Positions 4,603 through 38,519 of a DNA stretch of 38,644 nt are shown in pieces (within the stretch, counting starts at the first letter, position 1; each line of letters begins with the position of its first letter). The position numbers and the translations under genes were made by a program. The notes below the pieces were generated by a model that was not told the DNA's origin, did no database searches, and saw only the letters and a program-made list of their open reading frames with translations. The stretch comes from a bacterium (lineage in GTDB: Bacteria; Patescibacteriota; Minisyncoccia; UBA6257; 2-01-FULL-56-20), in assembly GCA_027310965.1 (NCBI GenBank), contig DAICZW010000003.1, positions 1 through 38,644 of the forward strand, read 5' to 3'.

Positions 4603-4714
4603 GCGTCGTAGTGTTATAATGTTCTAATTCTAATATTGTAATGTTCTCATGGCTGAGCGTTGATTCAGTGTTGTATTTTCACTATAACACTACACCATGA
4701 GAATATTACATCTT
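4603..4714 (-). repeat. IG-1 spacer element, copy a (fills the whole tktN-tktC spacer)
   Basis: Words TAGTGTTATAATGTTCTAAT and ATTGTAATGTTCTCATGG lie on the low-coordinate side. Their complements TATAACACTAC and CCATGAGAATATTACA lie on the high side. The core carries GAGCGTTGATTCA. Confidence 0.8.
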
Positions 4715-5575: not shown

Positions 5576-5660
5576 AGATGTTGTAGTGTCCTAAATGTTC
5601 TAATACTGTAATGACAGAGAGCGTTGCATTCTCACCATAACACTACAACATTACAACTCT
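5576..5660 (-). repeat. IG-1 spacer element, copy b
   Basis: ATGTTGTAGTGT (5578-5589) is perfectly complementary to ACACTACAACAT (5640-5651). The core carries GAGCGTTGCATTC. Confidence 0.8.
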
Positions 5661-6170: not shown

Positions 6171-6264
6171 GGTATGGATTTTAATTCTTTATTTTTACAG
6201 AAAGCGTGAATCCTCAGCCAAGCTGAGAACGACATGCGAACTTTATTACGACACTACAACATTA
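6171..6264 (-). repeat. composite spacer: REP-like hairpin (6204-6236) plus an IG-1 half element (6248-6264)
   Basis: GCGTGAATCCTCAGCcaaGCTGAGAACGACATG is followed by ACGACACTACAACATTA, which overlaps the rpe stop codon. Confidence 0.7.
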
Positions 6265-6915
6265 GAACTCTAGAACCCGCAGCGCTTCATATGCTTTCGC
6301 CGGATCGGCGCTTCCGAAAATATAGGCGCCCGATGCGATCGTATCGGCGCCGGCATCTTTCACCAATGCGGCCGTTTCGGGATTCATGCCGCCGTCCACT
6401 TCTATCATTATAGCACCTTCGCGTTTTAAAAACTTTATTTTTTCGAGTGCCGACGGATCAAACGATTGCCCCGCAGGCCCCGGACGGACAGCAAGCACCA
6501 AAAATTCCGAGAATAAACCGAGATAAGGATTTAATGCTTCAATCGGCGTATCGGGATTTGAGGCAAGCATCACCGTCGCGCCGGTTCCTTTTTCGCCGCC
6601 GGCCGCCGCCAGGATATTCCGCGCCGACGCGACGGTAATCGTTTCAACGTGCACGATGATCCGTTGCGCGCCCGCCGCGCGCCATGCCGCAATATAATCT
6701 TCGGGTCGCGCGACCATCAAATGGACCTCCTTATTGAACGGAATGCCCATCGCCGCGAACGCCGCGGGATCGTGCCATGTCGCGTGCGCCGAAAAAATAC
6801 CGTCGGTCACGTCAATATGGATCCAGTCATCGGTACGCATAAATTTTTTCGCGGCGGCGATTTTCTCTTCGACGCACGCGCGATCGGGACAGTTGATGAC
6901 GGTAATGACATCCAT
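6262..6915 (-). CDS. rpe: ribulose-phosphate 3-epimerase (diverged)
   Basis: 217 aa with IHIDVTDG, HLMV, VHVE, RPGPAGQSF and EVDGG, the TIM-barrel motif order of Rpe. Confidence 0.75.
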   Translation of the reverse strand: MDVITVINCPDRACVEEKIAAAKKFMRTDDWIHIDVTDGIFSAHATWHDPAAFAAMGIPFNKEVHLMVARPEDYIAAWRAAGAQRIIVHVETITVASARNILAAAGGEKGTGATVMLASNPDTPIEALNPYLGLFSEFLVLAVRPGPAGQSFDPSALEKIKFLKREGAIMIEVDGGMNPETAALVKDAGADTIASGAYIFGSADPAKAYEALRVLEF

Positions 6916-7008
6916 GCTTTGATGTTGTAACGATGCAATGTTCTCAATGTTGCAATGAAAAACCGCCGCTCCATCACTAAAACATTACAACACTGCAACG
7001 CTTTACGT
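6916..7008 (-). repeat. IG-1 spacer element, copy d
   Basis: GATGTTGTAACGATGCAATGTTCTCAATGTTGCAATG ... AAAACATTACAACACTGCAACG. Confidence 0.75.
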
Positions 7009-13702: not shown

Positions 13703-15604
13703 TCATTGGATTGTGAAATCGTCCGCATTATTGTCCGTATCGATAATCGCGCCGTTTTGAAAAATCCTCGTGAGCGCCTGGTCCGCCGCGGGGTCGGTCG
13801 GATACGCCGCGCCTTCGCCATATTGGTTCACGCCCGTTCCCCACGCGACCGCATCGACCATGACGCCCGTGGCATCGAAAAGCGCAACGCTATTATCCGC
13901 ACCCAGCGTCTCGGTACTCGAAACATCCGCGCCGATCGCCGCCGAAAATCCGTTCGCGGAATTCGCCCACGTAAAAATGCCGCCGGCCGGCACCGCACTG
14001 CCCGCCGGAAATTCTCTCAATGAATAATCCGCGCCCGTGCCGCTTTTTTTGCGTAATTTCCATCCGCTCACGTCGACCGCGCTATTTTCAGGGTTATAAA
14101 TTTTCACAAAATCATCCGTTGTCGATGCGCCCGCAATCTGCACGGCGACGATCATAAGATGCGCAATCGCTCCGGCGGTCGTCGCAGCGCCTGACGCAAC
14201 CGTTGATGTCGTTGCGTCGCCGAATACGACGGCTGATGTTGACGATAGCTGGATATCGCCGCCGCCGGAACCGCCGGAAATATCAAAACTTGAAGACGCA
14301 TCCGCCGCGACGGACGATAGATCGGCGGTAATATCACTCCTCAAAAGACCGCCCGAAGAATCATTGGCGGCACATACCGAAGACGACGTTTGCGTCACCG
14401 AAGAAGTCGCAACAGCAACCGGCGCAATATATCCCGTTGAATTTTCGGCTTTCGGCGTTCCGCCGGGATCCGCGCTCGTATGCCATCCGAAATCGGCGCG
14501 ATTACGTTCCAATGTCCGCTTCGCGCCATTGTCGCCGCCCGGCCATCCGTCCGACGCGTCCAAAATATCCACGGGCGCGCACGCGCCGTCAAAAATGCCG
14601 AGCGCGTCGCCCGTATTCGGCAACGCGCCGGAATAAATCTTGTCCGCCGGAATACCGGATATCGCATTGTCATCCGTACGCTTGAGAAAATAGAACGATG
14701 ACGGCGCAATACGGTCGCTATCACCGAAAACGACCGTTATATTTTCCGCCGTGTCGATAAGCTCCCAGCCGGCGAGCGGAACCGTGCTTGACGTCTCATT
14801 TTTTATCTCCATCCATTCGTCATTGCCCGCGCCCGCCGCGCTTTCGCCGCTTTGCGCAGGCGATCCCATCCACGCGATCTCGTTCAAAATAATCCGATGC
14901 GACGGCGCGGCAGTATTCGCGGCGGTAAACGCGCATCGCGGCCGCGCCGGCGGCGATGATGGCCTCCCGTTAAAAGAAGATGTGCTCCCCAAAAGCGATG
15001 ACGTCGAAAACGACGCTCCGAAAGGCGGAACGAAAGATGCCGTTCCCGATACGGAATCCGAAACGGAATCGGGACTGCCTGTCGCATTTTCGGAAGTATC
15101 GGAAGTCATCCCCGGAACATCACCGCCATCCGGCATGATCGTGCTTGATACTGCGCCGCTTGCCGCCACGACATCCAGTTCCAAACCGGAAACGCTTTCC
15201 ACGCCGGATGATTGCCGTATGTCGGCTTGCGCGCTTACCGCGGCGGCGGCATTTTTACTTGCCGGTGGTTGCGCAAAATCATTTCCGGCGATATTCGCAT
15301 CGGCTGTTCCGCCAGCCGGATCATTTTCATTCACAGTTGATGACGAACTCATTTCTACAGACGACGAACTATCAGCAGAAACATTCTCCAGTGCAACTTC
15401 CTTTGTATTTCCGCTTAAAGACAAACCGAATGCTTCACGGAACGACTGCACGGCGATGGCCGCGTTATTTTTCAAAAAACCGCTGCCGGCGCCGAACGCG
15501 AAAAAATATACGGCAGTGCCCGCCGTTAAAACCCCTGCGAAAATCAACGCATGACGGATGAATTTTCTCTTTTTATCGACGGCGACTTCCTCGTATATTT
15601 CCAT
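13703..15604 (-). CDS. membrane-anchored surface protein with two lamin-tail domains (LTD)
   Basis: 633 aa. N-terminal TM, a Ser-rich linker, then IILNEIAWMGS..NDEWMEIKN..LAGWEL and VQIAGASTTDDFVKIYNP..VSGWKL. Confidence 0.75.
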   Translation of the reverse strand: MEIYEEVAVDKKRKFIRHALIFAGVLTAGTAVYFFAFGAGSGFLKNNAAIAVQSFREAFGLSLSGNTKEVALENVSADSSSSVEMSSSSTVNENDPAGGTADANIAGNDFAQPPASKNAAAAVSAQADIRQSSGVESVSGLELDVVAASGAVSSTIMPDGGDVPGMTSDTSENATGSPDSVSDSVSGTASFVPPFGASFSTSSLLGSTSSFNGRPSSPPARPRCAFTAANTAAPSHRIILNEIAWMGSPAQSGESAAGAGNDEWMEIKNETSSTVPLAGWELIDTAENITVVFGDSDRIAPSSFYFLKRTDDNAISGIPADKIYSGALPNTGDALGIFDGACAPVDILDASDGWPGGDNGAKRTLERNRADFGWHTSADPGGTPKAENSTGYIAPVAVATSSVTQTSSSVCAANDSSGGLLRSDITADLSSVAADASSSFDISGGSGGGDIQLSSTSAVVFGDATTSTVASGAATTAGAIAHLMIVAVQIAGASTTDDFVKIYNPENSAVDVSGWKLRKKSGTGADYSLREFPAGSAVPAGGIFTWANSANGFSAAIGADVSSTETLGADNSVALFDATGVMVDAVAWGTGVNQYGEGAAYPTDPAADQALTRIFQNGAIIDTDNNADDFTIQ

Positions 15605-15643
15605 TGGTTATTTTTATTCGACGCGCATACGCACGTGAATTTC

Positions 15644-15813
15644 ATAGGACTTACGCGTTTGAAAAAATATTTTAAAAACGTCAGATGTTTCAAACCGCAA
15701 GGGCCTGGCCAATTACTTCGTTATTTTCCTGCGGTTTTCATCGCCGTAGTCGGACTACGGCTCCCAAAATCCTCGGAAAATGCCTCGTACTTGGCCAAGC
15801 GCATAAGTCCTAT
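15644..15813 (+). repeat. ~170-nt terminally inverted, hairpin-rich element (MITE-like), copy A
   Basis: The termini ATAGGACTTACGCG ... GCGCATAAGTCCTAT are inverted repeats. The central palindrome is CCGTAGTCGGACTACGG. The copy aligns along its length with copies at 18327-18492 and 29423-29587. Confidence 0.8.
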
Positions 15814-15851
15814 TTCAATAACCATAGCAAGGAGCGGATTAAATATATCTT

Positions 15852-15905
15852 AAAGGACTCCGCATTTTAATTCGGAAAGGAGGGGCTCTCTTTACTCCTT
15901 TCCGA
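15852..15905. other. perfect 21-bp stem hairpin (12-nt loop)
   Basis: GCATTTTAATTCGGAAAGGAG - gggctctcttta - CTCCTTTCCGAATTAAAATGC. Confidence 0.8.
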
Positions 15906-16035
15906 ATTAAAATGCTCCGTCTAGTGCGGAAACGAGGGACGGGCTTCCTTAAAAGTCCCTCGCAAGCGATAAAGCTTCGTCCGGGGCGGAAACGAAGTAT
16001 CGCATCAAGTTCCATTAATGTAATGAGAATTCGAT

Positions 16036-16070
16036 TCAAAAAACAGGCCGGCAAAAATTGCCGGCCTGTT
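16036..16070 (-). terminator. intrinsic terminator (minus strand), probable end of the ndk transcript
   Basis: 13-bp stem AACAGGCCGGCAA/TTGCCGGCCTGTT with a 3-nt loop, followed on the minus strand by TTTTTT. Confidence 0.65.
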
Positions 16071-16080
16071 GGCAGCGATA

Positions 16081-16112
16081 AGGAAGTAAACGCGTCCGCG
16101 CGTTTACTTCCT
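16081..16112. other. perfect 14-bp stem hairpin with tetraloop
   Basis: AGGAAGTAAACGCG-tccg-CGCGTTTACTTCCT. No T-run on either side. Confidence 0.7.
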
Positions 16113-16213
16113 CCAGACGAACCGACGGATGAAACAAAGTTTCATAAAATTTCCGAACAACCCGCGAACACTGCCTAAAAAAATCGTTTTTCGGAATGAG
16201 CTCCAAAAAAAAT

Positions 16214-16907: not shown

Positions 16908-18317
16908 TTATAATTGCTTTTTGATCTCTATTCCCAGTTCCTCGAGCTGTTTTTTGTCCACTTCGCCCGGCGCATCCATCATAAGATCGCGACCGTCGCC
17001 TGTTTTCGGAAATGCAATCACCTCGCGGATGTTCGGCTCGTTTTGAAGCAGCGATACCAGCCGATCCAATCCCCAGGCGATGCCGCCATGCGGAGGCGCA
17101 CCGTATCCCAAAGCATCGAGGATATGCCCGAAATTTTTCCGGATACTTTCCTTTTCAAATCCCATGATTTCAAAAACCGCCTCCAATGCTTCGGGCCGGT
17201 GGTTGCGGATGCTCCCGCCGCCGATCTCCGTGCCGTTCATCGCGATGTCATATTGCGCGGATAAAATTTCAGGGATATTTTTCTTTGCAAGCAGGTCATC
17301 CATAAATTCCGGTTTCGGCGCGGAGAACGGATTGTGCGTGAACGTCCATTCTTTCGCCGAAGCTTCGGATCGCGCGGTATTCGTTTCCGTTTTTTCGAAA
17401 AACGGGAAATCCACAACCCAGCAAAACGCGAGAAGATTTTCATCGTTCTTATCTTTCCGCATATCCGGACGGTCGGTGCCGTATTTTTCCATCGCATCTT
17501 TGTAGGTGATGCGCGGAAACGGAATCTCCTGTATTTTTTTACGGGGCGCGGCAGTTGCGACAAGCGCGATCAAAAGTTCTTCGTTTAATGCCATAACCTC
17601 TTCCTGATCGACAAAGCTCATTTCCATGTCGAGCTGCGTAAACTCCGGCTGGCGGTCGCCGCGCGTGTCCTCGTCGCGGAAACAGCGCGCGATCTGGAAA
17701 TATTTTTCGACGCCGGCGACCATCAAAAGCTGCTTGTACTGCTGGGGCGATTGCGGAAGCGCGTAAAAACTTCCCTTCTGGATGCGCGACGGCACGAGAT
17801 AATCGCGCGCGCCCTCGGGCGTCGACTTCGAAAGATTCGGCGTTTCAACTTCGATGAAACCGCGCTCCGAAAGAAAATCTCTTATGAATTTTATTGCGTC
17901 ATGGCGGGCGATGAGATTGTCTTTCATCCGGCTGCGGCGCAAATCCAGATAGCGGTACTTCAGCCGCGCCTCTTCGTTGATGTCGTATCCGTCGCCGAGG
18001 ATAGGCAAAGGCATCTCACCGGTACGGTTCAGGATCGTAAGCTCCGTCGCTCCGACTTCGTACGCGCCGGTCGGAATTTTATCGTTCACCATGCTCGGCG
18101 GGCGTTTTTTCACCCCGCCTTTTATTTTCACCACATACTCAAGCCGCAGTTCGGACGCGTGCGCGACGTCCGGCCCGAAAACCACCTGCGTAAATCCGCT
18201 CCGGTCGCGGAGATCGATAAAAACCAGTTTCCCGTGATCGCGCCGCGCCTGCACCCAGCCGCACAGCTCGACCTCTTTGCCGTCATTTTTTATAATATCT
18301 CCGATAAGCGTTCTCAT
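16908..18317 (-). CDS. aspS: aspartate--tRNA ligase, bacterial-type core without the GAD insertion
   Basis: Motifs FRDEDTRGDRQPEFTQLDMEMSF and GGIAWGLDRL. Start taken at ATG 18315-18317 (MRTLIGDI...); the track's upstream GTG start lies inside the repeat element. Confidence 0.9.
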   Translation of the reverse strand: MRTLIGDIIKNDGKEVELCGWVQARRDHGKLVFIDLRDRSGFTQVVFGPDVAHASELRLEYVVKIKGGVKKRPPSMVNDKIPTGAYEVGATELTILNRTGEMPLPILGDGYDINEEARLKYRYLDLRRSRMKDNLIARHDAIKFIRDFLSERGFIEVETPNLSKSTPEGARDYLVPSRIQKGSFYALPQSPQQYKQLLMVAGVEKYFQIARCFRDEDTRGDRQPEFTQLDMEMSFVDQEEVMALNEELLIALVATAAPRKKIQEIPFPRITYKDAMEKYGTDRPDMRKDKNDENLLAFCWVVDFPFFEKTETNTARSEASAKEWTFTHNPFSAPKPEFMDDLLAKKNIPEILSAQYDIAMNGTEIGGGSIRNHRPEALEAVFEIMGFEKESIRKNFGHILDALGYGAPPHGGIAWGLDRLVSLLQNEPNIREVIAFPKTGDGRDLMMDAPGEVDKKQLEELGIEIKKQL

Positions 18318-18323
18318 GACAAT

Positions 18324-18329
18324 TTTATA
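18324..18329 (-). promoter_or_regulatory. -10-like TATAAA, 6 nt before the aspS start, straddling the terminus of element copy B
   Basis: The minus strand reads GTCCTATAAA-attgtc-ATG. Confidence 0.3.
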
Positions 18330-18492
18330 GGACTTACGCACTTGTGCCGAGTACGAGGCATTTTCCGATTATTTTCCGAGACGTAGTCCGACTACGGCGA
18401 TGAAAATAACCGGAAAATAACGAAGGAATCGGCCAAGCCGTTTCGGTTTGATATATTTTCTTATGATTTTTTTTCAAATGCGTATGTCCTAT
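18327..18492 (-). repeat. ~170-nt terminally inverted element, copy B (inverted relative to A and C)
   Basis: ATAGGACTTACGCAC ... GCGTATGTCCTAT. Its reverse complement aligns with copies A and C. It fills the aspS-mgtC divergent spacer. Confidence 0.8.
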
Positions 18493-19906: not shown

Positions 19907-20002
19907 TGCTTAAATGTTGTAATGTTTTGTAATGTTATAGCGTTGTAATGAAAATTCATCGCACTATTAAAGACACTCCGACACTATAAAACGCATCGCA
20001 CT
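19907..20002 (+). repeat. IG-1 spacer element, copy e (plus-strand orientation)
   Basis: After the def stop: AATGTTGTAATGTTTTGTAATGTTATAGCGTTGTAATG. Before the fmt ATG: GACACTCCGACACTATAAAACGCATCGCACT. Confidence 0.7.
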
Positions 20003-28207: not shown

Positions 28208-28235
28208 ATAACAGCATCAAAAACCGCCGTCAAAA

Positions 28236-29285
28236 TCATCCTGATGCATGCGGTTCCGGTTCACGGCCGGAAAGCAACGGATAAATATCCAACAGCGCAA
28301 AGAAAAATGCCAGCGCCAGCGGGCCGATAAGGAATCCGATAAGGCCAAACACGCTGATGCCGCCCAGTACGGAAAGCAGGATCAGAAACGGATGGGCGTT
28401 CAGGCCGCGGCGCTTGAGTTGCGGCGAAAGAAGATTATCGACGCCGTTCATGGAAACGACGATCCACCAGACGAACAACCCGATGCCGGCGATGATATGG
28501 CCGGTCGCAAAAAGATAGACGATGGCGGGAATATCCACGATTGAAGTTCCCACCATCGGGATGAGCGCGGCAACAACGGCAAGCGATCCCCAGAACGCCG
28601 CGTTCGGGATGCCGAATATCCAAAAACCGGCGATGGCCTCGACGCCATGAATCAGGGCGATCGCGAGCGATCCGCCAACCACCGAATAGATCGCCCGCTC
28701 CATCCGGTCGATCACGCGTTTTGAATAGCGCTGCTCAAGCGGAATAAGCGATGCGATTTTATCGCGAAGCGCATTGCCGTCCGTAAGAAGATAAAACATT
28801 CCGAACAGGCTCAGGAATAACACGAGCGCGAACTGCGCAAGACCGCCGACGAACGGCAGCAGATTCTGCACAACCCAGCCCAGCGCCATGCTGAGATAAT
28901 TCGTGATGTCTATCTGCGGGAAATCAAAACCGCTGAAATGCCGCGCGAGAAAACCGTTCACGATCGCGCCAAGATGCACTTCATTGCCGCCCGCAAACCA
29001 TCCGTAGAGATGCATCGCCTGCCCAAAAATGAGCGTCGCAAGAAAACTGAACGGCACCAGCACGATAAGGATAACGGTAAGCACCGTGATAAGCGCCGCA
29101 AGCCAGTCATAACGGACCAGTTTACGAAGACCGCGATACAACGGATTGAAAACGACGGCAAAGACGATTGCGAAAACGACCACCGAAAGGTATGGCAGGA
29201 AAATATAAACGACAAGCGCGGCCGACGCGAGGAAGAGCGCGACGAGAAAATGATTCCCGAATTGCTTCGGATCCTTCGGTTCCAT
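28236..29285 (-). CDS. AI-2E (PerM/UPF0118) family transporter
   Basis: ~8 TM helices with LIPMVGTSIVDIPAIVYL-type motifs. Start at ATG 29283-29285. Confidence 0.75.
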   Translation of the reverse strand: MEPKDPKQFGNHFLVALFLASAALVVYIFLPYLSVVVFAIVFAVVFNPLYRGLRKLVRYDWLAALITVLTVILIVLVPFSFLATLIFGQAMHLYGWFAGGNEVHLGAIVNGFLARHFSGFDFPQIDITNYLSMALGWVVQNLLPFVGGLAQFALVLFLSLFGMFYLLTDGNALRDKIASLIPLEQRYSKRVIDRMERAIYSVVGGSLAIALIHGVEAIAGFWIFGIPNAAFWGSLAVVAALIPMVGTSIVDIPAIVYLFATGHIIAGIGLFVWWIVVSMNGVDNLLSPQLKRRGLNAHPFLILLSVLGGISVFGLIGFLIGPLALAFFFALLDIYPLLSGREPEPHASG

Positions 29286-29291
29286 ACAACT

Positions 29292-29297
29292 ATTATA
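29292..29297 (-). promoter_or_regulatory. consensus -10 TATAAT, 6 nt before the AI-2E start (leaderless geometry)
   Basis: The minus strand reads TATAAT-agttgt-ATG. Confidence 0.4.
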
Positions 29298-29422
29298 GCA
29301 CATTCCGCCGCCGTCGCGCGGCTCCTTAAACGCGAAGAACGCAAAAAAAGAATTCCGAAAAACTTGAAAAACAATCGTGTGTACGGTACCATCAACCCAT
29401 TCAGCAAAAAACGGTAAAAAAA

Positions 29423-29587
29423 ATAGGACCTACGCATTTGAAAAAAATATAAGAAAATATCTTAAACCGCAGCGGACAAGGCCCGTCCCTTCGTTATTTT
29501 CCGATTATTTTCATCGCCGCAGCCGGACTACATCCCGGAAAATAACCGGAAAATGCCCCGTACCCGGCGCACGTGCGTACGTCCTAA
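29423..29587 (+). repeat. ~170-nt terminally inverted element, copy C
   Basis: ATAGGACCTACGCATTTGAAAAAAA ... CACGTGCGTACGTCCTAA. It is collinear with copy A and ends 10 nt before the tig ATG. Confidence 0.8.
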
Positions 29588-29597
29588 AAATAAATTT

Positions 29598-30710
29598 ATG
29601 CCGACCCATTACGAAAATCTAAAAAAAATAAACGAAAAGGACGGCGTAATCGCTTTCCAGGCGGATATCCCCCTCGCAATCCTTGAAAAAAATATAGGCG
29701 AGGCCGTAATCCGCGAAGCCGCCGATTTTGCGCTCCCGGGATTCCGCAAAGGCAAAGTACCGGAACATATCGTCCGCCAGCACATCAGCGAAATGGACCT
29801 TCTTGAAGATGCGGCGCACGCAGAATTCCGTGACGCCATCCGCGAAATAATCGCCGACGAAAAACTTTCGATCATCGGTGCGCCGCAGGTCACGATTACG
29901 AAGATCGCGCTCAAAAATCCCGTCACTTTCACGGCGCGGTTCGCCCTTTATCCGGAATTCACGCTCCCCGATTACAAAAAAATCGGGCGCGGCATCGCGG
30001 AACGAAAAGAACCGTCCGGCGTTGATGAAAAAGATATCGATACCGCGATCGCGCGCATCCAAAAAATGACGGCACCACGGGAAGATCGCGAAACAGACAC
30101 GGAAAAAGAAAAAAACGCCAAGGGAAGCGGCACGGAAGATGAAGATAAAAAGGAAAACGCTCCCCTCCCGCCGCTCACGGACGATTTCGTGAAACAGTTC
30201 GGAAATTTTGAAAACGTCGCGGCATTCCGCGCGGAGGTGAAAAAACAGCTCGAACAGGAAAAAGAAACGCAGATCAAAGAATCCAAACGCGAGGAAACCG
30301 TCAAAAAAATAATGGCATCATCGAAGATTAAAATTCCGGCGCTGCTTATCGACGAAGAATTTTACGATTTCATGGAGCGGCGCGACGCGGAACTTGAACG
30401 GGCGGGCATGTCGCTTGAGGAATATCTGAAAGAAATCAAGAAAACGGAGAATGAGCTCGAACAGGAAGAGCGGCAATTGATCGAGGACCGGATAAAAATG
30501 AGTTTAGTTATGGGCGAAATCAGAAAAAAAGAATCTATTGAAGCGACCGAGGACGAAGTCCATAAATACATTCCCTCGCTCAAATACCGCTATCCCGACC
30601 GCAGCGAAGAGGACATGCACCGGACTGCGGAGGCATACATCATCCAGGAAAAACTGTTCGATATGCTGGAAGGAAAAAACGAAACCGGCGATGCTGTTCC
30701 GCTTTCATAA
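29598..30710 (+). CDS. tig: trigger factor lacking the PPIase domain
   Basis: The ribosome-binding signature LPGFRKGKVP and C-terminal arm motifs (LPPLTDDFVKQFG...) are present. Start at ATG 29598, because the track start lies in the repeat. Confidence 0.85.
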   Translation: MPTHYENLKKINEKDGVIAFQADIPLAILEKNIGEAVIREAADFALPGFRKGKVPEHIVRQHISEMDLLEDAAHAEFRDAIREIIADEKLSIIGAPQVTITKIALKNPVTFTARFALYPEFTLPDYKKIGRGIAERKEPSGVDEKDIDTAIARIQKMTAPREDRETDTEKEKNAKGSGTEDEDKKENAPLPPLTDDFVKQFGNFENVAAFRAEVKKQLEQEKETQIKESKREETVKKIMASSKIKIPALLIDEEFYDFMERRDAELERAGMSLEEYLKEIKKTENELEQEERQLIEDRIKMSLVMGEIRKKESIEATEDEVHKYIPSLKYRYPDRSEEDMHRTAEAYIIQEKLFDMLEGKNETGDAVPLS

Positions 30711-30871
30711 GAAAAAATTTATAGCCGTATGGATTGAGAGCAGAAAGTCATAGGTTTTCTGGTAGATGATAAGGTCGTCGAACATTGCCGGAAAGAAATT
30801 TCGAAAAGTTAAAAAACACAAAGAAAGAAGGTTCACTCTATTGAATAACCTGATTTTCGACTGTATCCGGC

Positions 30872-30953
30872 GGGGAGAAAGAAAGAAAGTTAAGAGGGAA
30901 AGAAGAAGAGAAGAGAAAAGAAAAGAAGGAAGAAAAACCAAAGGGACAAAGAG
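30872..30953 (+). repeat. polypurine tract (46-nt uninterrupted A/G run at 30892-30937)
   Basis: GGGGAGAAAGAAAGAAAG..AAGAGGGAAAGAAGAAGAGAAGAGAAAAGAAAAGAAGGAAGAAAAA, in the convergent tig/pilin spacer. Confidence 0.85.
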
Positions 30954-30964
30954 ACGAATTTTAT

Positions 30965-32188
30965 TTAGTCCTTGATGCAACGGGCAGAAAACCCGTAGGC
31001 GCGGTAATCGTAATTCGCGGGGACCACGAAGCTCGAGTGGAAGGCGAAGTTGTAGGCGTTCGTGCCGTCGATGGAAGACGACCAGTAGTAGCCGCTCGCG
31101 CCCTGACCAGCAAACAAAGCGTCGGAGGGATCGCGGAGACCGGCATCGGTGAGTTTGAGGGTTGTGTTGTACAAAGCCGTATCGCATCCCGAGGAGCAGG
31201 AAGCAAGGCCGACGGCGCTCACCCAATTGCTCCATTGCGTCTGAGTTGGGATGCTCCATCCGATCGGGCAGGGATTGTTGATGGCGGTGCTGGTACCCTG
31301 CCAGAGGTTGTCATTCTGGGGGGAACGCCAGTCATAAGGGGAATTGGGGGCTTCGATGAAGTCGGCATTGCCGGGAACATCGGTGCTACTGAGGGTGGTT
31401 GTTGCGGTGCTGGTCGTTATCTGATGGCCGTCCGTCAGGCGTCCCCATTGGTAGAGCCATCCATAGGCGGAGGAATCGGTGACGGATTGTGCGATGTTGG
31501 CGGTGCCGAGATTACTGGCGAGCCAGCAATTGCCGTCCTCGCCAATGACGGTATGGTAGATGGTGGTGTCGGGAGCAAGGCCGGTGACGGTACTTTCGCC
31601 GCAGACAAAGATCGGCGATCCCGCGCCTACGGTAAAGGGAGATTGCGCTTGGAATTTCTGCGATTCCGCGTTGGCGAAGACCTCCCAATTGGTGCCGCCG
31701 GTCACATAGGTATAATAGAGGTTCGAGGAGGATTGATTCACGGGATCCACGGGAAGGGAACCCAGCAGGGAGCCGAACGATGCCTTCGTGAAATTGACAG
31801 GAATCCAGCCGGTGCCGTCGACATGCGTATAGGTGGAAGATGCCGCGCAATGAAAGGATCCTCCCGAGGGGAAGCCCAGTCCCGAACAGTCGGTGCCGGC
31901 GGTCGTCGTCGCCGTCGGATCGGGAATGGAGAGATAGGTGACGGACGAAGAGCCGAGGGAGAATCCTATGAATCCTCCTGTGTCCGCGACATAGGCATTG
32001 AGGGCGGTCGTGAGGGCGCTCAGATCGGAAAGACGGTTGCTGTCCCTGCTTTGTTTCAGGAGTTCGGAGGGATTCAGGACCATAACGACCGCCACCATGA
32101 GGACGGCGATGATGGCGATCACGACGAGAAGCTCTATGAGGGTGAAGGCGGAACGGGATGCTTTGTTTGTTGTTCTTTTCGTCTTCAT
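30965..32188 (-). CDS. type IV pilin-like protein with large C-terminal FISUMP (Fibrobacter succinogenes major paralogous, TIGR02145-like) domain
   Basis: Prepilin N-terminus MKTKRTTNKASRSA|FTLIELLVVIAIIAVLMV. C-terminal motifs are GNCWLASNLG, GWLYQWGR, CPIGWSIPT, GYYWSSS and YGFSARCIKD. Confidence 0.85.
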   Translation of the reverse strand: MKTKRTTNKASRSAFTLIELLVVIAIIAVLMVAVVMVLNPSELLKQSRDSNRLSDLSALTTALNAYVADTGGFIGFSLGSSSVTYLSIPDPTATTTAGTDCSGLGFPSGGSFHCAASSTYTHVDGTGWIPVNFTKASFGSLLGSLPVDPVNQSSSNLYYTYVTGGTNWEVFANAESQKFQAQSPFTVGAGSPIFVCGESTVTGLAPDTTIYHTVIGEDGNCWLASNLGTANIAQSVTDSSAYGWLYQWGRLTDGHQITTSTATTTLSSTDVPGNADFIEAPNSPYDWRSPQNDNLWQGTSTAINNPCPIGWSIPTQTQWSNWVSAVGLASCSSGCDTALYNTTLKLTDAGLRDPSDALFAGQGASGYYWSSSIDGTNAYNFAFHSSFVVPANYDYRAYGFSARCIKD

Positions 32189-32371
32189 GGGAGGGAGAAG
32201 AAAGGAAATGAAAGAAGCGGGGTTACTCTCTCTCGTGGGGGAGGCTTACTTTTTTGATGCGGTGTCTATAGTCATGATGGGTTGTTTGCGACGACTGAAC
32301 TTATTATATTACAACTTATTTAAAGATATGTGCCTTAATTATTATTTTATGGCTTGATCTATTCTATTCAA

Positions 32372-34093: not shown

Positions 34094-34217
34094 GATATGA
34101 TGTTCTAATGTTGTAATAAAAAAATAAAACGCTTCATTCATCCGACGCAATTCTTATTGCGTCGTCCGCCCGAAGGAGGGAGTCCATACTTCCGATCTTT
34201 TTTCTTAATTTTTCAAA

Positions 34218-34252
34218 ATGTGAATCGTCCAGCCAAACCGGACGATGACAGG
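34218..34252 (-). repeat. REP-like short hairpin element
   Basis: The plus strand reads ATGTGA-ATCGTCCAGcc-aaa-ccGGACGAT-GACAGG. The flanks match the other copies, but the stem sequence is different. Confidence 0.6.
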
Positions 34253-34257
34253 AGGAA

Positions 34258-34294
34258 ACTTTCTTATTATTTTTTTTCAAATGCGTAAGTCCTA
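34258..34294 (-). repeat. solo left-end fragment of the ~170-nt element (copy D)
   Basis: The minus strand reads ATAGGACTTACGCATTTGAAAAAAAATAATAAGAAA, matching the first ~37 nt of copies A, B and C. It ends 2 nt from the stop of the 99-aa gene. Confidence 0.7.
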
Positions 34295-34296
34295 TT

Positions 34297-34596
34297 TTAT
34301 TGCGGAGGAATGAACGGATTACTGCGGCCGGTCGAGGACGGAACCGTCGAAGACGGAACATATTGCTTCAAAGATTGGAAAAGCGGGTTCTGTGTCACCG
34401 CCGATGCATGGATCGTGATTCCGGCAAGAGAAGTGGTCGATGCGAAATTCGCGGAAGGCGCAACGATAACCGATTCGGGTGCCGCGAAAAAAAGATAATA
34501 AACCGCCCCGACCCCGACTGCGATAAACACAAGCCATCCTATAACGCTCATAATGCTCCCGCTGCTGTTTTTTTCTTCTTCAATGACAATAGCCAT
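34297..34596 (-). CDS. small single-pass membrane protein in the pilus operon (function unknown)
   Basis: 99 aa with TM helix VIGWLVFIAVGVGAVYYLFF. It sits between the pilO-like gene and pilB. Confidence 0.6.
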   Translation of the reverse strand: MAIVIEEEKNSSGSIMSVIGWLVFIAVGVGAVYYLFFAAPESVIVAPSANFASTTSLAGITIHASAVTQNPLFQSLKQYVPSSTVPSSTGRSNPFIPPQ

Positions 34597-34684
34597 GGTG
34601 TTATATTTTAGTGTTTTAATGTTGTAATTGTTTTAACGAAAAGCTCAGCGCTCTATCGCCATAACATTACAACATGAGAACTTT
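34597..34684 (-). repeat. IG-1 spacer element, copy g
   Basis: GGTGTTATATTTTAGTGTTTTAATGTTGTAATTG ... CATAACATTACAACATGAG. Confidence 0.75.
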
Positions 34685-35886: not shown

Positions 35887-35967
35887 AGAATTATATTTTG
35901 GTGTTCCGGCGTCGTAATTGCCGCAATGAAAAAATGAACACTGCAATATTATAACATTATAATCTTT
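35887..35967 (-). repeat. IG-1 spacer element, copy h (more diverged)
   Basis: TTATATTTTGGTGTTCCGGCGTCGTAATTGCCGCAATG ... AACACTGCAATATTATAACATTATAATC. Confidence 0.55.
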
Positions 35968-38426: not shown

Positions 38427-38519
38427 TAGTGTTGAAGATGTTATAGTGTTGGGTCGGTCGGGGCGATCTTGTTGTAATGCGCAAGATCATTACAACACTG
38501 CATTCTTATCGCTTCACAT
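38427..38519 (+). repeat. IG-1 spacer element, copy i, ending at the tRNA-Arg 5' end
   Basis: TAGTGTTGAAGATGTTATAGTGTTGG ... GATCTTGTTGTAATGCGCAAGATCATTACAACACTGC. Confidence 0.7.

Follow-up and report, generated by a model that had tools for sequence, protein, structure and literature searches.

A hairpin-rich repeat of about 165 bp recurs across the window (the whole stretch of 38,644 nucleotides analysed here), and two of its copies lie directly upstream of aspS and tig; the question is whether it is a non-autonomous mobile element or a structured RNA module common to these genes. We consider it likely that the repeats are non-coding MITEs of ~165 bp with terminal inverted repeats (TIRs) of ~17 bp, that stem from, and are moved in trans by, an IS701-family DDE transposase of the ISPlag1 clade (NF049921-type). 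An earlier note, made from the letters alone, had left both readings open; that of a non-autonomous mobile element is upheld by the TIRs, by target-site duplications (TSDs), by the occurrence of copies at unrelated sites in different lineages and by the absence of the element from the orthologous aspS and tig spacers.

Architecture and insertion footprint of the repeats

The window holds four element loci, denoted A to D, and a fifth was found in a sister assembly. Their coordinates are as follows.

15645–15812, plus strand: MITE copy A, 168 nt (alignment, BLAST and fold)
15645–15661: left TIR of copy A
15796–15812: right TIR of copy A
about 15723–15781: central hairpin of copy A
15640–15644 (left) and 15813–15817 (right): TSD of copy A, TTTCA (read directly from the sequence and the flank listing)
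18328–18491, minus strand: MITE copy B, 164 nt, in the divergent mgtC–aspS spacer
29424–29586, plus strand: MITE copy C, 163 nt, in the spacer that separates the AI-2E transporter gene (start 29303, minus strand) from tig (ATG 29598)
about 34139–34294, minus strand: partial copy D, corresponding to half of a variant-subfamily element, TIR tip at 34294 (BLAST and alignment)

Full-length alignment and pairwise BLAST (81% identity for A–B, 85% for B–C and 72% for A–C; E values of 1e-22 to 1e-50) agreed with the earlier description of A, B and C as end-to-end repeats, which have diverged by 15–28% from one another; the copies at the four window loci show no sign of recent movement in the window genome. 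At 163–168 nt, A–C are of MITE size and have no transposase coding capacity. The terminal 13-mer ATAGGACNTACGC occurs 10 times at two or fewer mismatches, compared with 1.7 occurrences expected from shuffles. Every full copy is predicted to fold into a rod-like, long imperfect hairpin (z-scores of −5.9, −7.5 and −4.3 for A, B and C, respectively, relative to shuffled controls), and repeat analysis recovered the central palindrome with its flanking A/T-rich inverted repeats that had been noted before. The left-end sub-hairpin GTTTGAAA...TTTCAAAC, also reported there, is strong in copy A and only there, and the proposed right-end fragment at 15626–15637 has to be dropped, being a 10-nt exact match at chance level (E=4.5). 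Logan contigs of the window organism break at the repeat.

Copy D had been taken for a solo left end of 37 nt at 34258–34294. This module is real and common to A–C (35 nt, 94% identical to B by BLAST), but it is not solitary, as D spans ~34139–34294. A variant element of 259 nt with both ends present lies at a different locus of a sister assembly (L052, 10033–10291) and has ~45 nt in common with A–C at each end, around a longer and different core. Since the window sequence at 34139–34294 is homologous to half of this variant, D represents a second subfamily in truncated form. On one side of it a 99-aa gene ends (stop at 34297), and on the other lies the ATG of pilB (34093, taken from the 573-aa gene call in contig L054), toward which D points, as noted earlier. 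A hairpin of the variant core (GACGCAATAAGAATTGCGTC, window ~34139–34175) recurs by itself at L054 9076–9116 (93% over 41 nt), about 2–2.5 kb past the right end of the window in the same genome.

The sister contig L052 is identical to the window over 28214–31413, with an identical copy C at the same site. Beyond 31413, the pilin-like gene at 30965–32188, which has an N-terminal methylation motif, falls from 100% to 46–81% identity (31413–32201) and is followed by genes unrelated between L052 and the window; this divergence reflects a type IV pilin locus that is hypervariable or, alternatively, a recombination breakpoint.

Alignment of the termini placed the true element ends at TAGGAC...GTCCTA, and each of A, B and C carries a ~17-bp TIR (TAGGACNTACGC[A/G]YTTG) on either side. 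The TA that had been described as bounding each copy from outside is thus the outermost dinucleotide of the element itself at each end, inside the TIR, and in related ends it is swapped for CA...TG. Immediately outside these ends, the following flanks were read (left / right, or the duplicated sequence), the L numbers denoting loci in other sequences with the same ends.

Copy A: TTTCA / TTTCA, exact (5/5)
Copy C: AAAAA / AAAAT, 4/5
Copy B: TACCA / TAAAA, no intact TSD
L001: ATTTA duplicated, exact (5/5)
L002: AATCA duplicated, exact (5/5)
L012: AAAAT duplicated, exact (5/5)
L013: AAGAT duplicated, exact (5/5)
L008: TTTAA / TTAAA

Exact 5-bp TSDs were therefore present in 5 of the 15 non-redundant elements with these ends (TTTCA, ATTTA, AATCA, AAAAT and AAGAT), a frequency reached in about 1 of 100,000 trials when right flanks were permuted among the 15 elements (P ~1e-5). 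The duplicated target is 5 bp long, variable and A/T-rich. A Stowaway-like MITE of the IS630/Tc1-mariner type, duplicating TA, had been suggested because the element begins and ends with TA; with TA lying inside the TIR, replaced by CA...TG in related ends, and with duplicated flanks of 5 bp instead of TA, this idea fails and we give it practically no credence, the ends instead matching the IS701 ISPlag1 clade as described below.

Orthologous spacers and gene context at aspS and tig

Near-identical contigs to the window are present in three further assemblies (GCA_027308915, GCA_027308945 and GCA_027308955), and the nearest named homologues of its aspS belong to "Patescibacteria group bacterium" and Candidatus Paceibacterota. 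On sequence grounds, the host is a member of the Patescibacteria (CPR), Paceibacteria-like and with very short intergenic spacers. The closest relative compared was Logan ERR14373511, with amino-acid identities of 86% for aspS and 79% for tig.

The earlier note had asked for empty orthologous sites in relatives, and presence/absence polymorphism was found at both genes. At the aspS site of this relative (L022), the start codons of mgtC and aspS are ~30 nt apart (48 nt between gene calls) with no element between recognisably homologous flanks (CATTGTAATAGTAT... and ...AATTG...ATGAGAACGCTTAT). At the tig site of ERR14373511 (L049), the spacer between the AI-2E transporter gene and tig is 22 nt (GGGTACTATCAACCCATTCTTATGCCGACC) and free of the element; the window has the homologous GGTACCATCAACCCATTC, then 21 A-rich bases, the 163-nt element, 11 bases and ATGCCGACC. 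A second relative, fully syntenic (ERZ28656406 scaffold_405, L050), has spacers of 98 and 126 nt (126 nt at tig) without the element, and the tig spacer of L051, with homologous flanks, likewise lacks it. Across relatives, the orthologous aspS and tig spacers thus measure 22–126 nt, all without the element, and we conclude that it was inserted in the window lineage. The relatives in this comparison are 14–21% diverged in protein sequence, so that the empty sites are not base-precise; relative to them, extra A-rich bases accompany C and a duplication of ATACCA accompanies B.

A further relative (GCA_028865305.1; L021, 9700–9900), whose aspS is 82% identical, has a 334-nt spacer upstream of this gene, in which AAGGTGGCACCGCGG is followed by a terminator-like hairpin. 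The arrangement resembles a T-box leader; such a leader is absent from the window and from the closest relative.

The gene context of copies B and C involves three further features.

16908–18317, minus strand: aspS, 469 aa, directly downstream of B (NCBIfam NF001750, 2.4e-197)
29598–30710, plus strand: tig, 370 aa, directly downstream of C (TIGR00115; start codon conserved with L049)
29364–29392, plus strand: promoter-like site TTGAAA-17-TACCAT upstream of C (predicted, consensus scan)

As stated earlier, the right ends of B and C point into aspS and tig close to their start codons: B ends 10 nt from the aspS ATG (18317), its left tip being 26 nt from the mgtC ATG (18518), and C ends 11 nt from the tig ATG (29598). 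The −10 region of the promoter-like site upstream of C is conserved in the MITE-free L049 (GGGTACTATCAACCCATTCTTATG), and the position of this site would place C inside the tig 5′ UTR. A TGTAAT box conserved with that same relative is located 19 nt upstream of B; within the element itself, no predicted promoter was consistent across copies. B and C are probably transcribed, as judged from these predicted sites, within hairpin 5′ UTRs of ~200 nt belonging to aspS and tig. The public tig call (P0241, 385 aa) starts at an in-frame ATG (29553) inside copy C; comparison with homologues in relatives places the true start at 29598, so that the interval 29553–29597 adds 15 spurious residues. The 469-aa aspS product aligns with the bacterial 590-aa profile over two separate segments and appears to be without the insertion domain; equally short homologues of both aspS (469 aa) and tig (370 aa) are common in Patescibacteria.

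This arrangement bears on whether the copies before aspS and tig have been exapted as regulatory 5′ leaders, in which the hairpin might serve mRNA stability or RNase III processing or the element might supply an outward promoter, possibly in parallel with the Correia elements of Neisseria. The right ends of B and C do lie 10–11 nt from the ATG of essential genes in the same orientation, but with only two cases a shared orientation has P=0.5, and native spacers of only 22–50 nt in this lineage explain the short distance, since any tolerated insertion there falls close to a gene boundary. Native promoter-like sites upstream of the element should put the hairpin into the mRNA; a weak predicted hybrid promoter (TCGGCA-17-TAAAAT) spans the B/aspS junction, but it has no counterpart at C, and relatives express the same genes without the element. 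The consensus fold of A, B and C comprises 51 pairs, four of them with compensatory changes, a number that says little on selection because three sequences cannot separate selection for structure from palindromic ancestry. We therefore regard exaptation as unlikely; that B and C lie in the 5′ UTRs of aspS and tig would simply follow from where they happened to insert, although effects on regulation may occur, as the analogy with Correia elements suggests.

That the repeat is a dedicated structured cis-regulatory RNA or sRNA gene common to aspS, tig and pilB, as the earlier note had also proposed, is very improbable. Its predicted structure is very stable and it stands immediately 5′ of these three genes in the sense orientation; yet the same genes in relatives do without it, one relative having the T-box-like aspS leader instead, copy A is antisense to the nearest gene start (a 633-aa gene at 15604), and other family members are positioned just after stop codons. 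TSDs and TIRs point to transposition, and interchangeable cores with conserved ends are the opposite of what a functional RNA would be expected to show. The suggested Rfam scan brought no RNA family to light either: with Rfam 15, only tRNAs were detected at gathering thresholds, and nothing matched the elements at E≤5.

Copy A points, as had been noted, into a gene-free and hairpin-dense region. This is a 400-nt non-coding stretch (15813–16213) holding the ndk terminator (16042–16070), a perfect 21-bp inverted repeat (15862–15915) and further hairpins. Relatives have a NUDIX gene directly after ndk and no such stretch, of which no repeat copy was found elsewhere in the sequences examined.

Shared ends in other genomes and the ISPlag1 clade

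Public collections (a genome collection, metagenomes and viral contigs) were scanned with the left end of the element. The genome collection gave three matches, all short elements, two in a Candidatus Falkowbacteria MAG and one in the cyanobacterium Myxacorys almedinensis; the metagenomes gave 16 unclassified loci with the same 22-nt end, and the viral contigs gave no match. Nearly all matches represent the left end of an element of 39–212 nt with an inverted copy at its other end and a core unrelated to those of the others. In Myxacorys, the element is 39 nt long and its end is identical to the 23-nt CPR-type end; a 43-nt cyanobacterial mini-element had no match when compared with plasmids by BLAST. 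Family members are all intergenic and lie 1–8 nt after stop codons (L002, L005, L010 and L013) as often as before starts. Conserved end modules around exchangeable cores fit selection for recognition by a transposase, not for a functional RNA.

At L010 (242–2084), a gene for a large serine recombinase with Resolvase, Recombinase and Zn_ribbon_recom domains ends 1 nt before a decayed copy of a 134-nt MITE subfamily, and a tRNA-like sequence follows; the locus may be the edge of an integrated element.

A full-text literature search for the terminal 11-mers of the element led to ISPlag1 of Planktothrix, an IS701-group element of 1,306 bp encoding a 337-aa transposase, with a published TIR of CAGGACTTACGCAAGCACGCTATATATAG that begins CAGGACTTACGCAAGCACGC... 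and with described non-coding remnants of 197 bp (PMC2464740). We compared ISPlag1 from Planktothrix plasmids with related copies from other cyanobacteria and metagenomes, the transposases of which are 66–100% identical. All of these copies start CAGGACTTACGCA, with an inner TIR that varies by subclade; the terminal 12–13 nt of the window elements match this invariant start, and the tip YAGGACTTACGC[A/G], invariant in the clade, is present at all MITE ends. Clean 5-bp TSDs flank seven ISPlag1-clade copies on longer contigs or genomes (ACAGT, TTTGG, AATCA, TAATA, TTTTT, CTGCC and ACTAA). Most copies on short metagenome contigs have none, likely as a result of chimeric assembly. The transposases score 401–417 bits against NCBIfam NF049921 ("IS701 family transposase"; cut-off 250), an 812-bp deletion derivative of ISPlag1 is present in L023, and among the 120 closest transposase homologues listed the named ones are mostly cyanobacterial. 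The identity of the terminal 12–13 nt and of the TSD length is the basis for assigning the repeats to IS701/ISPlag1-type MITEs.

The earlier statement that no transposase is present was sustained across the window by tblastn, by Pfam searches of 30 further open reading frames and by NCBIfam searches of neighbouring genes. Nor was one found in ~14 kb of extra flank of the same genome in sister assemblies, which contain no further full copies, or at the Falkowbacteria and 16 metagenome loci bearing the same ends, and tblastn with the ISPlag1 transposase gave no match to any CPR locus examined. With no IS701-type transposase found in the CPR loci, we infer an IS701/ISPlag1-type enzyme as the mobilising partner in CPR from the 12–13-nt terminal identity and the TSD length.

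The same result leaves some room, which we take to be small, for a different transposase family, the repeats then being derivatives of a Tn3-family transposon (TIMEs) or of an undescribed CPR transposon whose ends resemble ISPlag1 by convergence. No IS701-type transposase was seen in any CPR sequence examined, and TSDs of 5 bp occur in more than one family (Tn3 and IS3 among them), but here its length is identical to that of the ISPlag1 clade. The match to ISPlag1 is limited to the outer 12–13 nt and the inner TIR differs; these outer bases are, however, exactly the invariant part of ISPlag1, whose own inner TIRs vary too, and Myxacorys, a member of the cyanobacteria, the main host group of ISPlag1, has the 39-nt element with the identical 23-nt CPR-type end.

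Under the preferred reading of ISPlag1-clade MITEs, the transposase would recognise the conserved YAGGACTTACGC termini and cut the target with a 5-bp stagger, favouring A/T-rich intergenic DNA, and repair of the staggered cut would produce the 5-bp direct duplication. With the very short spacers of the host, viable insertions would fall within a few bases of gene boundaries; B and C would have inserted downstream of the native promoters of aspS and tig but ahead of the start codons of these genes, and would probably be carried in their mRNAs as a long hairpin 5′ UTR.

Related systems and wider significance

In its anatomy and its mechanism, the repeat conforms to a standard bacterial MITE, and among known systems the cyanobacterial deletion derivatives of ISPlag1 are the closest relatives of the window MITEs. 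ISPlag1 and its derivatives in Planktothrix and other cyanobacteria have the same tip, (C/T)AGGACTTACGC(A/G), and the same 5-bp duplication, and non-coding, internally deleted derivatives exist for ISPlag1 too. The differences are that window elements start with TA and ISPlag1 with CA, that the window inner TIR (TTTGAAAAA / YTTG...) and core are unrelated to those of ISPlag1, and that ISPlag1 is mainly cyanobacterial, whereas the window elements belong to Patescibacteria, in which the searches detected no cognate transposase.

Correia elements (CREE) of Neisseria are MITEs of ~100–160 bp with 26-bp TIRs and a TA duplication; they lie next to genes, give rod-like hairpin transcripts, can be co-transcribed and have no transposase in the same genome, and promoter, IHF-binding and RNase III effects are documented for them. 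The window MITEs resemble them in size, TIRs, hairpin, gene-adjacent insertion and missing transposase. They differ in TSD (5 bp versus TA) and in the unrelated TIR sequence, and the functions documented for Correia elements can be extended to the window MITEs only by analogy. TIMEs are likewise non-autonomous, with a 5-bp TSD and a preference for A/T-rich targets. Like other Tn3-family elements they have ends of ~38 bp that start GGGG, whereas the window ends are ~17–20 bp, IS701/ISPlag1-like and begin TAGG or CAGG; a Tn3-derived TIME was rejected on these grounds. REP sequences and IS200/IS605-derived PATEs are also short, intergenic, hairpin-forming repeats, but they produce no target duplication, and in place of TIRs on which a DDE enzyme could act they carry sub-terminal hairpins; a REP/RAYT or PATE origin was rejected in view of the 5-bp TSDs and true TIRs of the window elements.

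The kind of element is ordinary, and it is apparently undescribed in these ultra-small bacteria; in the literature searched, neither MITEs nor IS701 elements were reported from Patescibacteria, whose small genomes are generally said to contain little mobile DNA. A MITE family whose ends and footprint are defined can serve as a simple marker for earlier transposase activity, for variation between strains and for possible horizontal exchange. It is also of practical value for annotation, given the tig start called inside the element, and for assembly, given the contig breaks at the repeat. Copies B and C offer a natural test of the effect of a 165-nt hairpin 5′ UTR on expression in organisms in which leaders appear to be very short. 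A bolder proposal, which we rate as a long shot, is that the conserved 20-nt ends and interchangeable cores define a cross-phylum MITE superfamily that has spread through streamlined Patescibacteria genomes without a cognate transposase, its nearest autonomous relatives being mainly cyanobacterial elements of the ISPlag1 type; if true, it would point to an exchange of genes by CPR bacteria with hosts among the cyanobacteria or elsewhere, and copies could be kept as hairpin 5′ UTRs that set the expression of essential genes such as aspS and tig.

A second intergenic repeat of the window is much shorter. The 10-mer TTGTAATGTT, often present as tandem 8-mers, occurs 13 times at one or fewer mismatches, compared with ~2 occurrences expected, always between genes (4614–4645, 5639–5656, 6258–6267, 6981–6990, 19917–19936, 34103–34112, 34614–34672, 35953–35962 and 38486–38495). 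Eight occurrences are 64–88 nt upstream of a start codon on the same strand, several of them at exactly 66–67 nt, and the motif has the look of a promoter or operator sequence that genes of this organism have in common.
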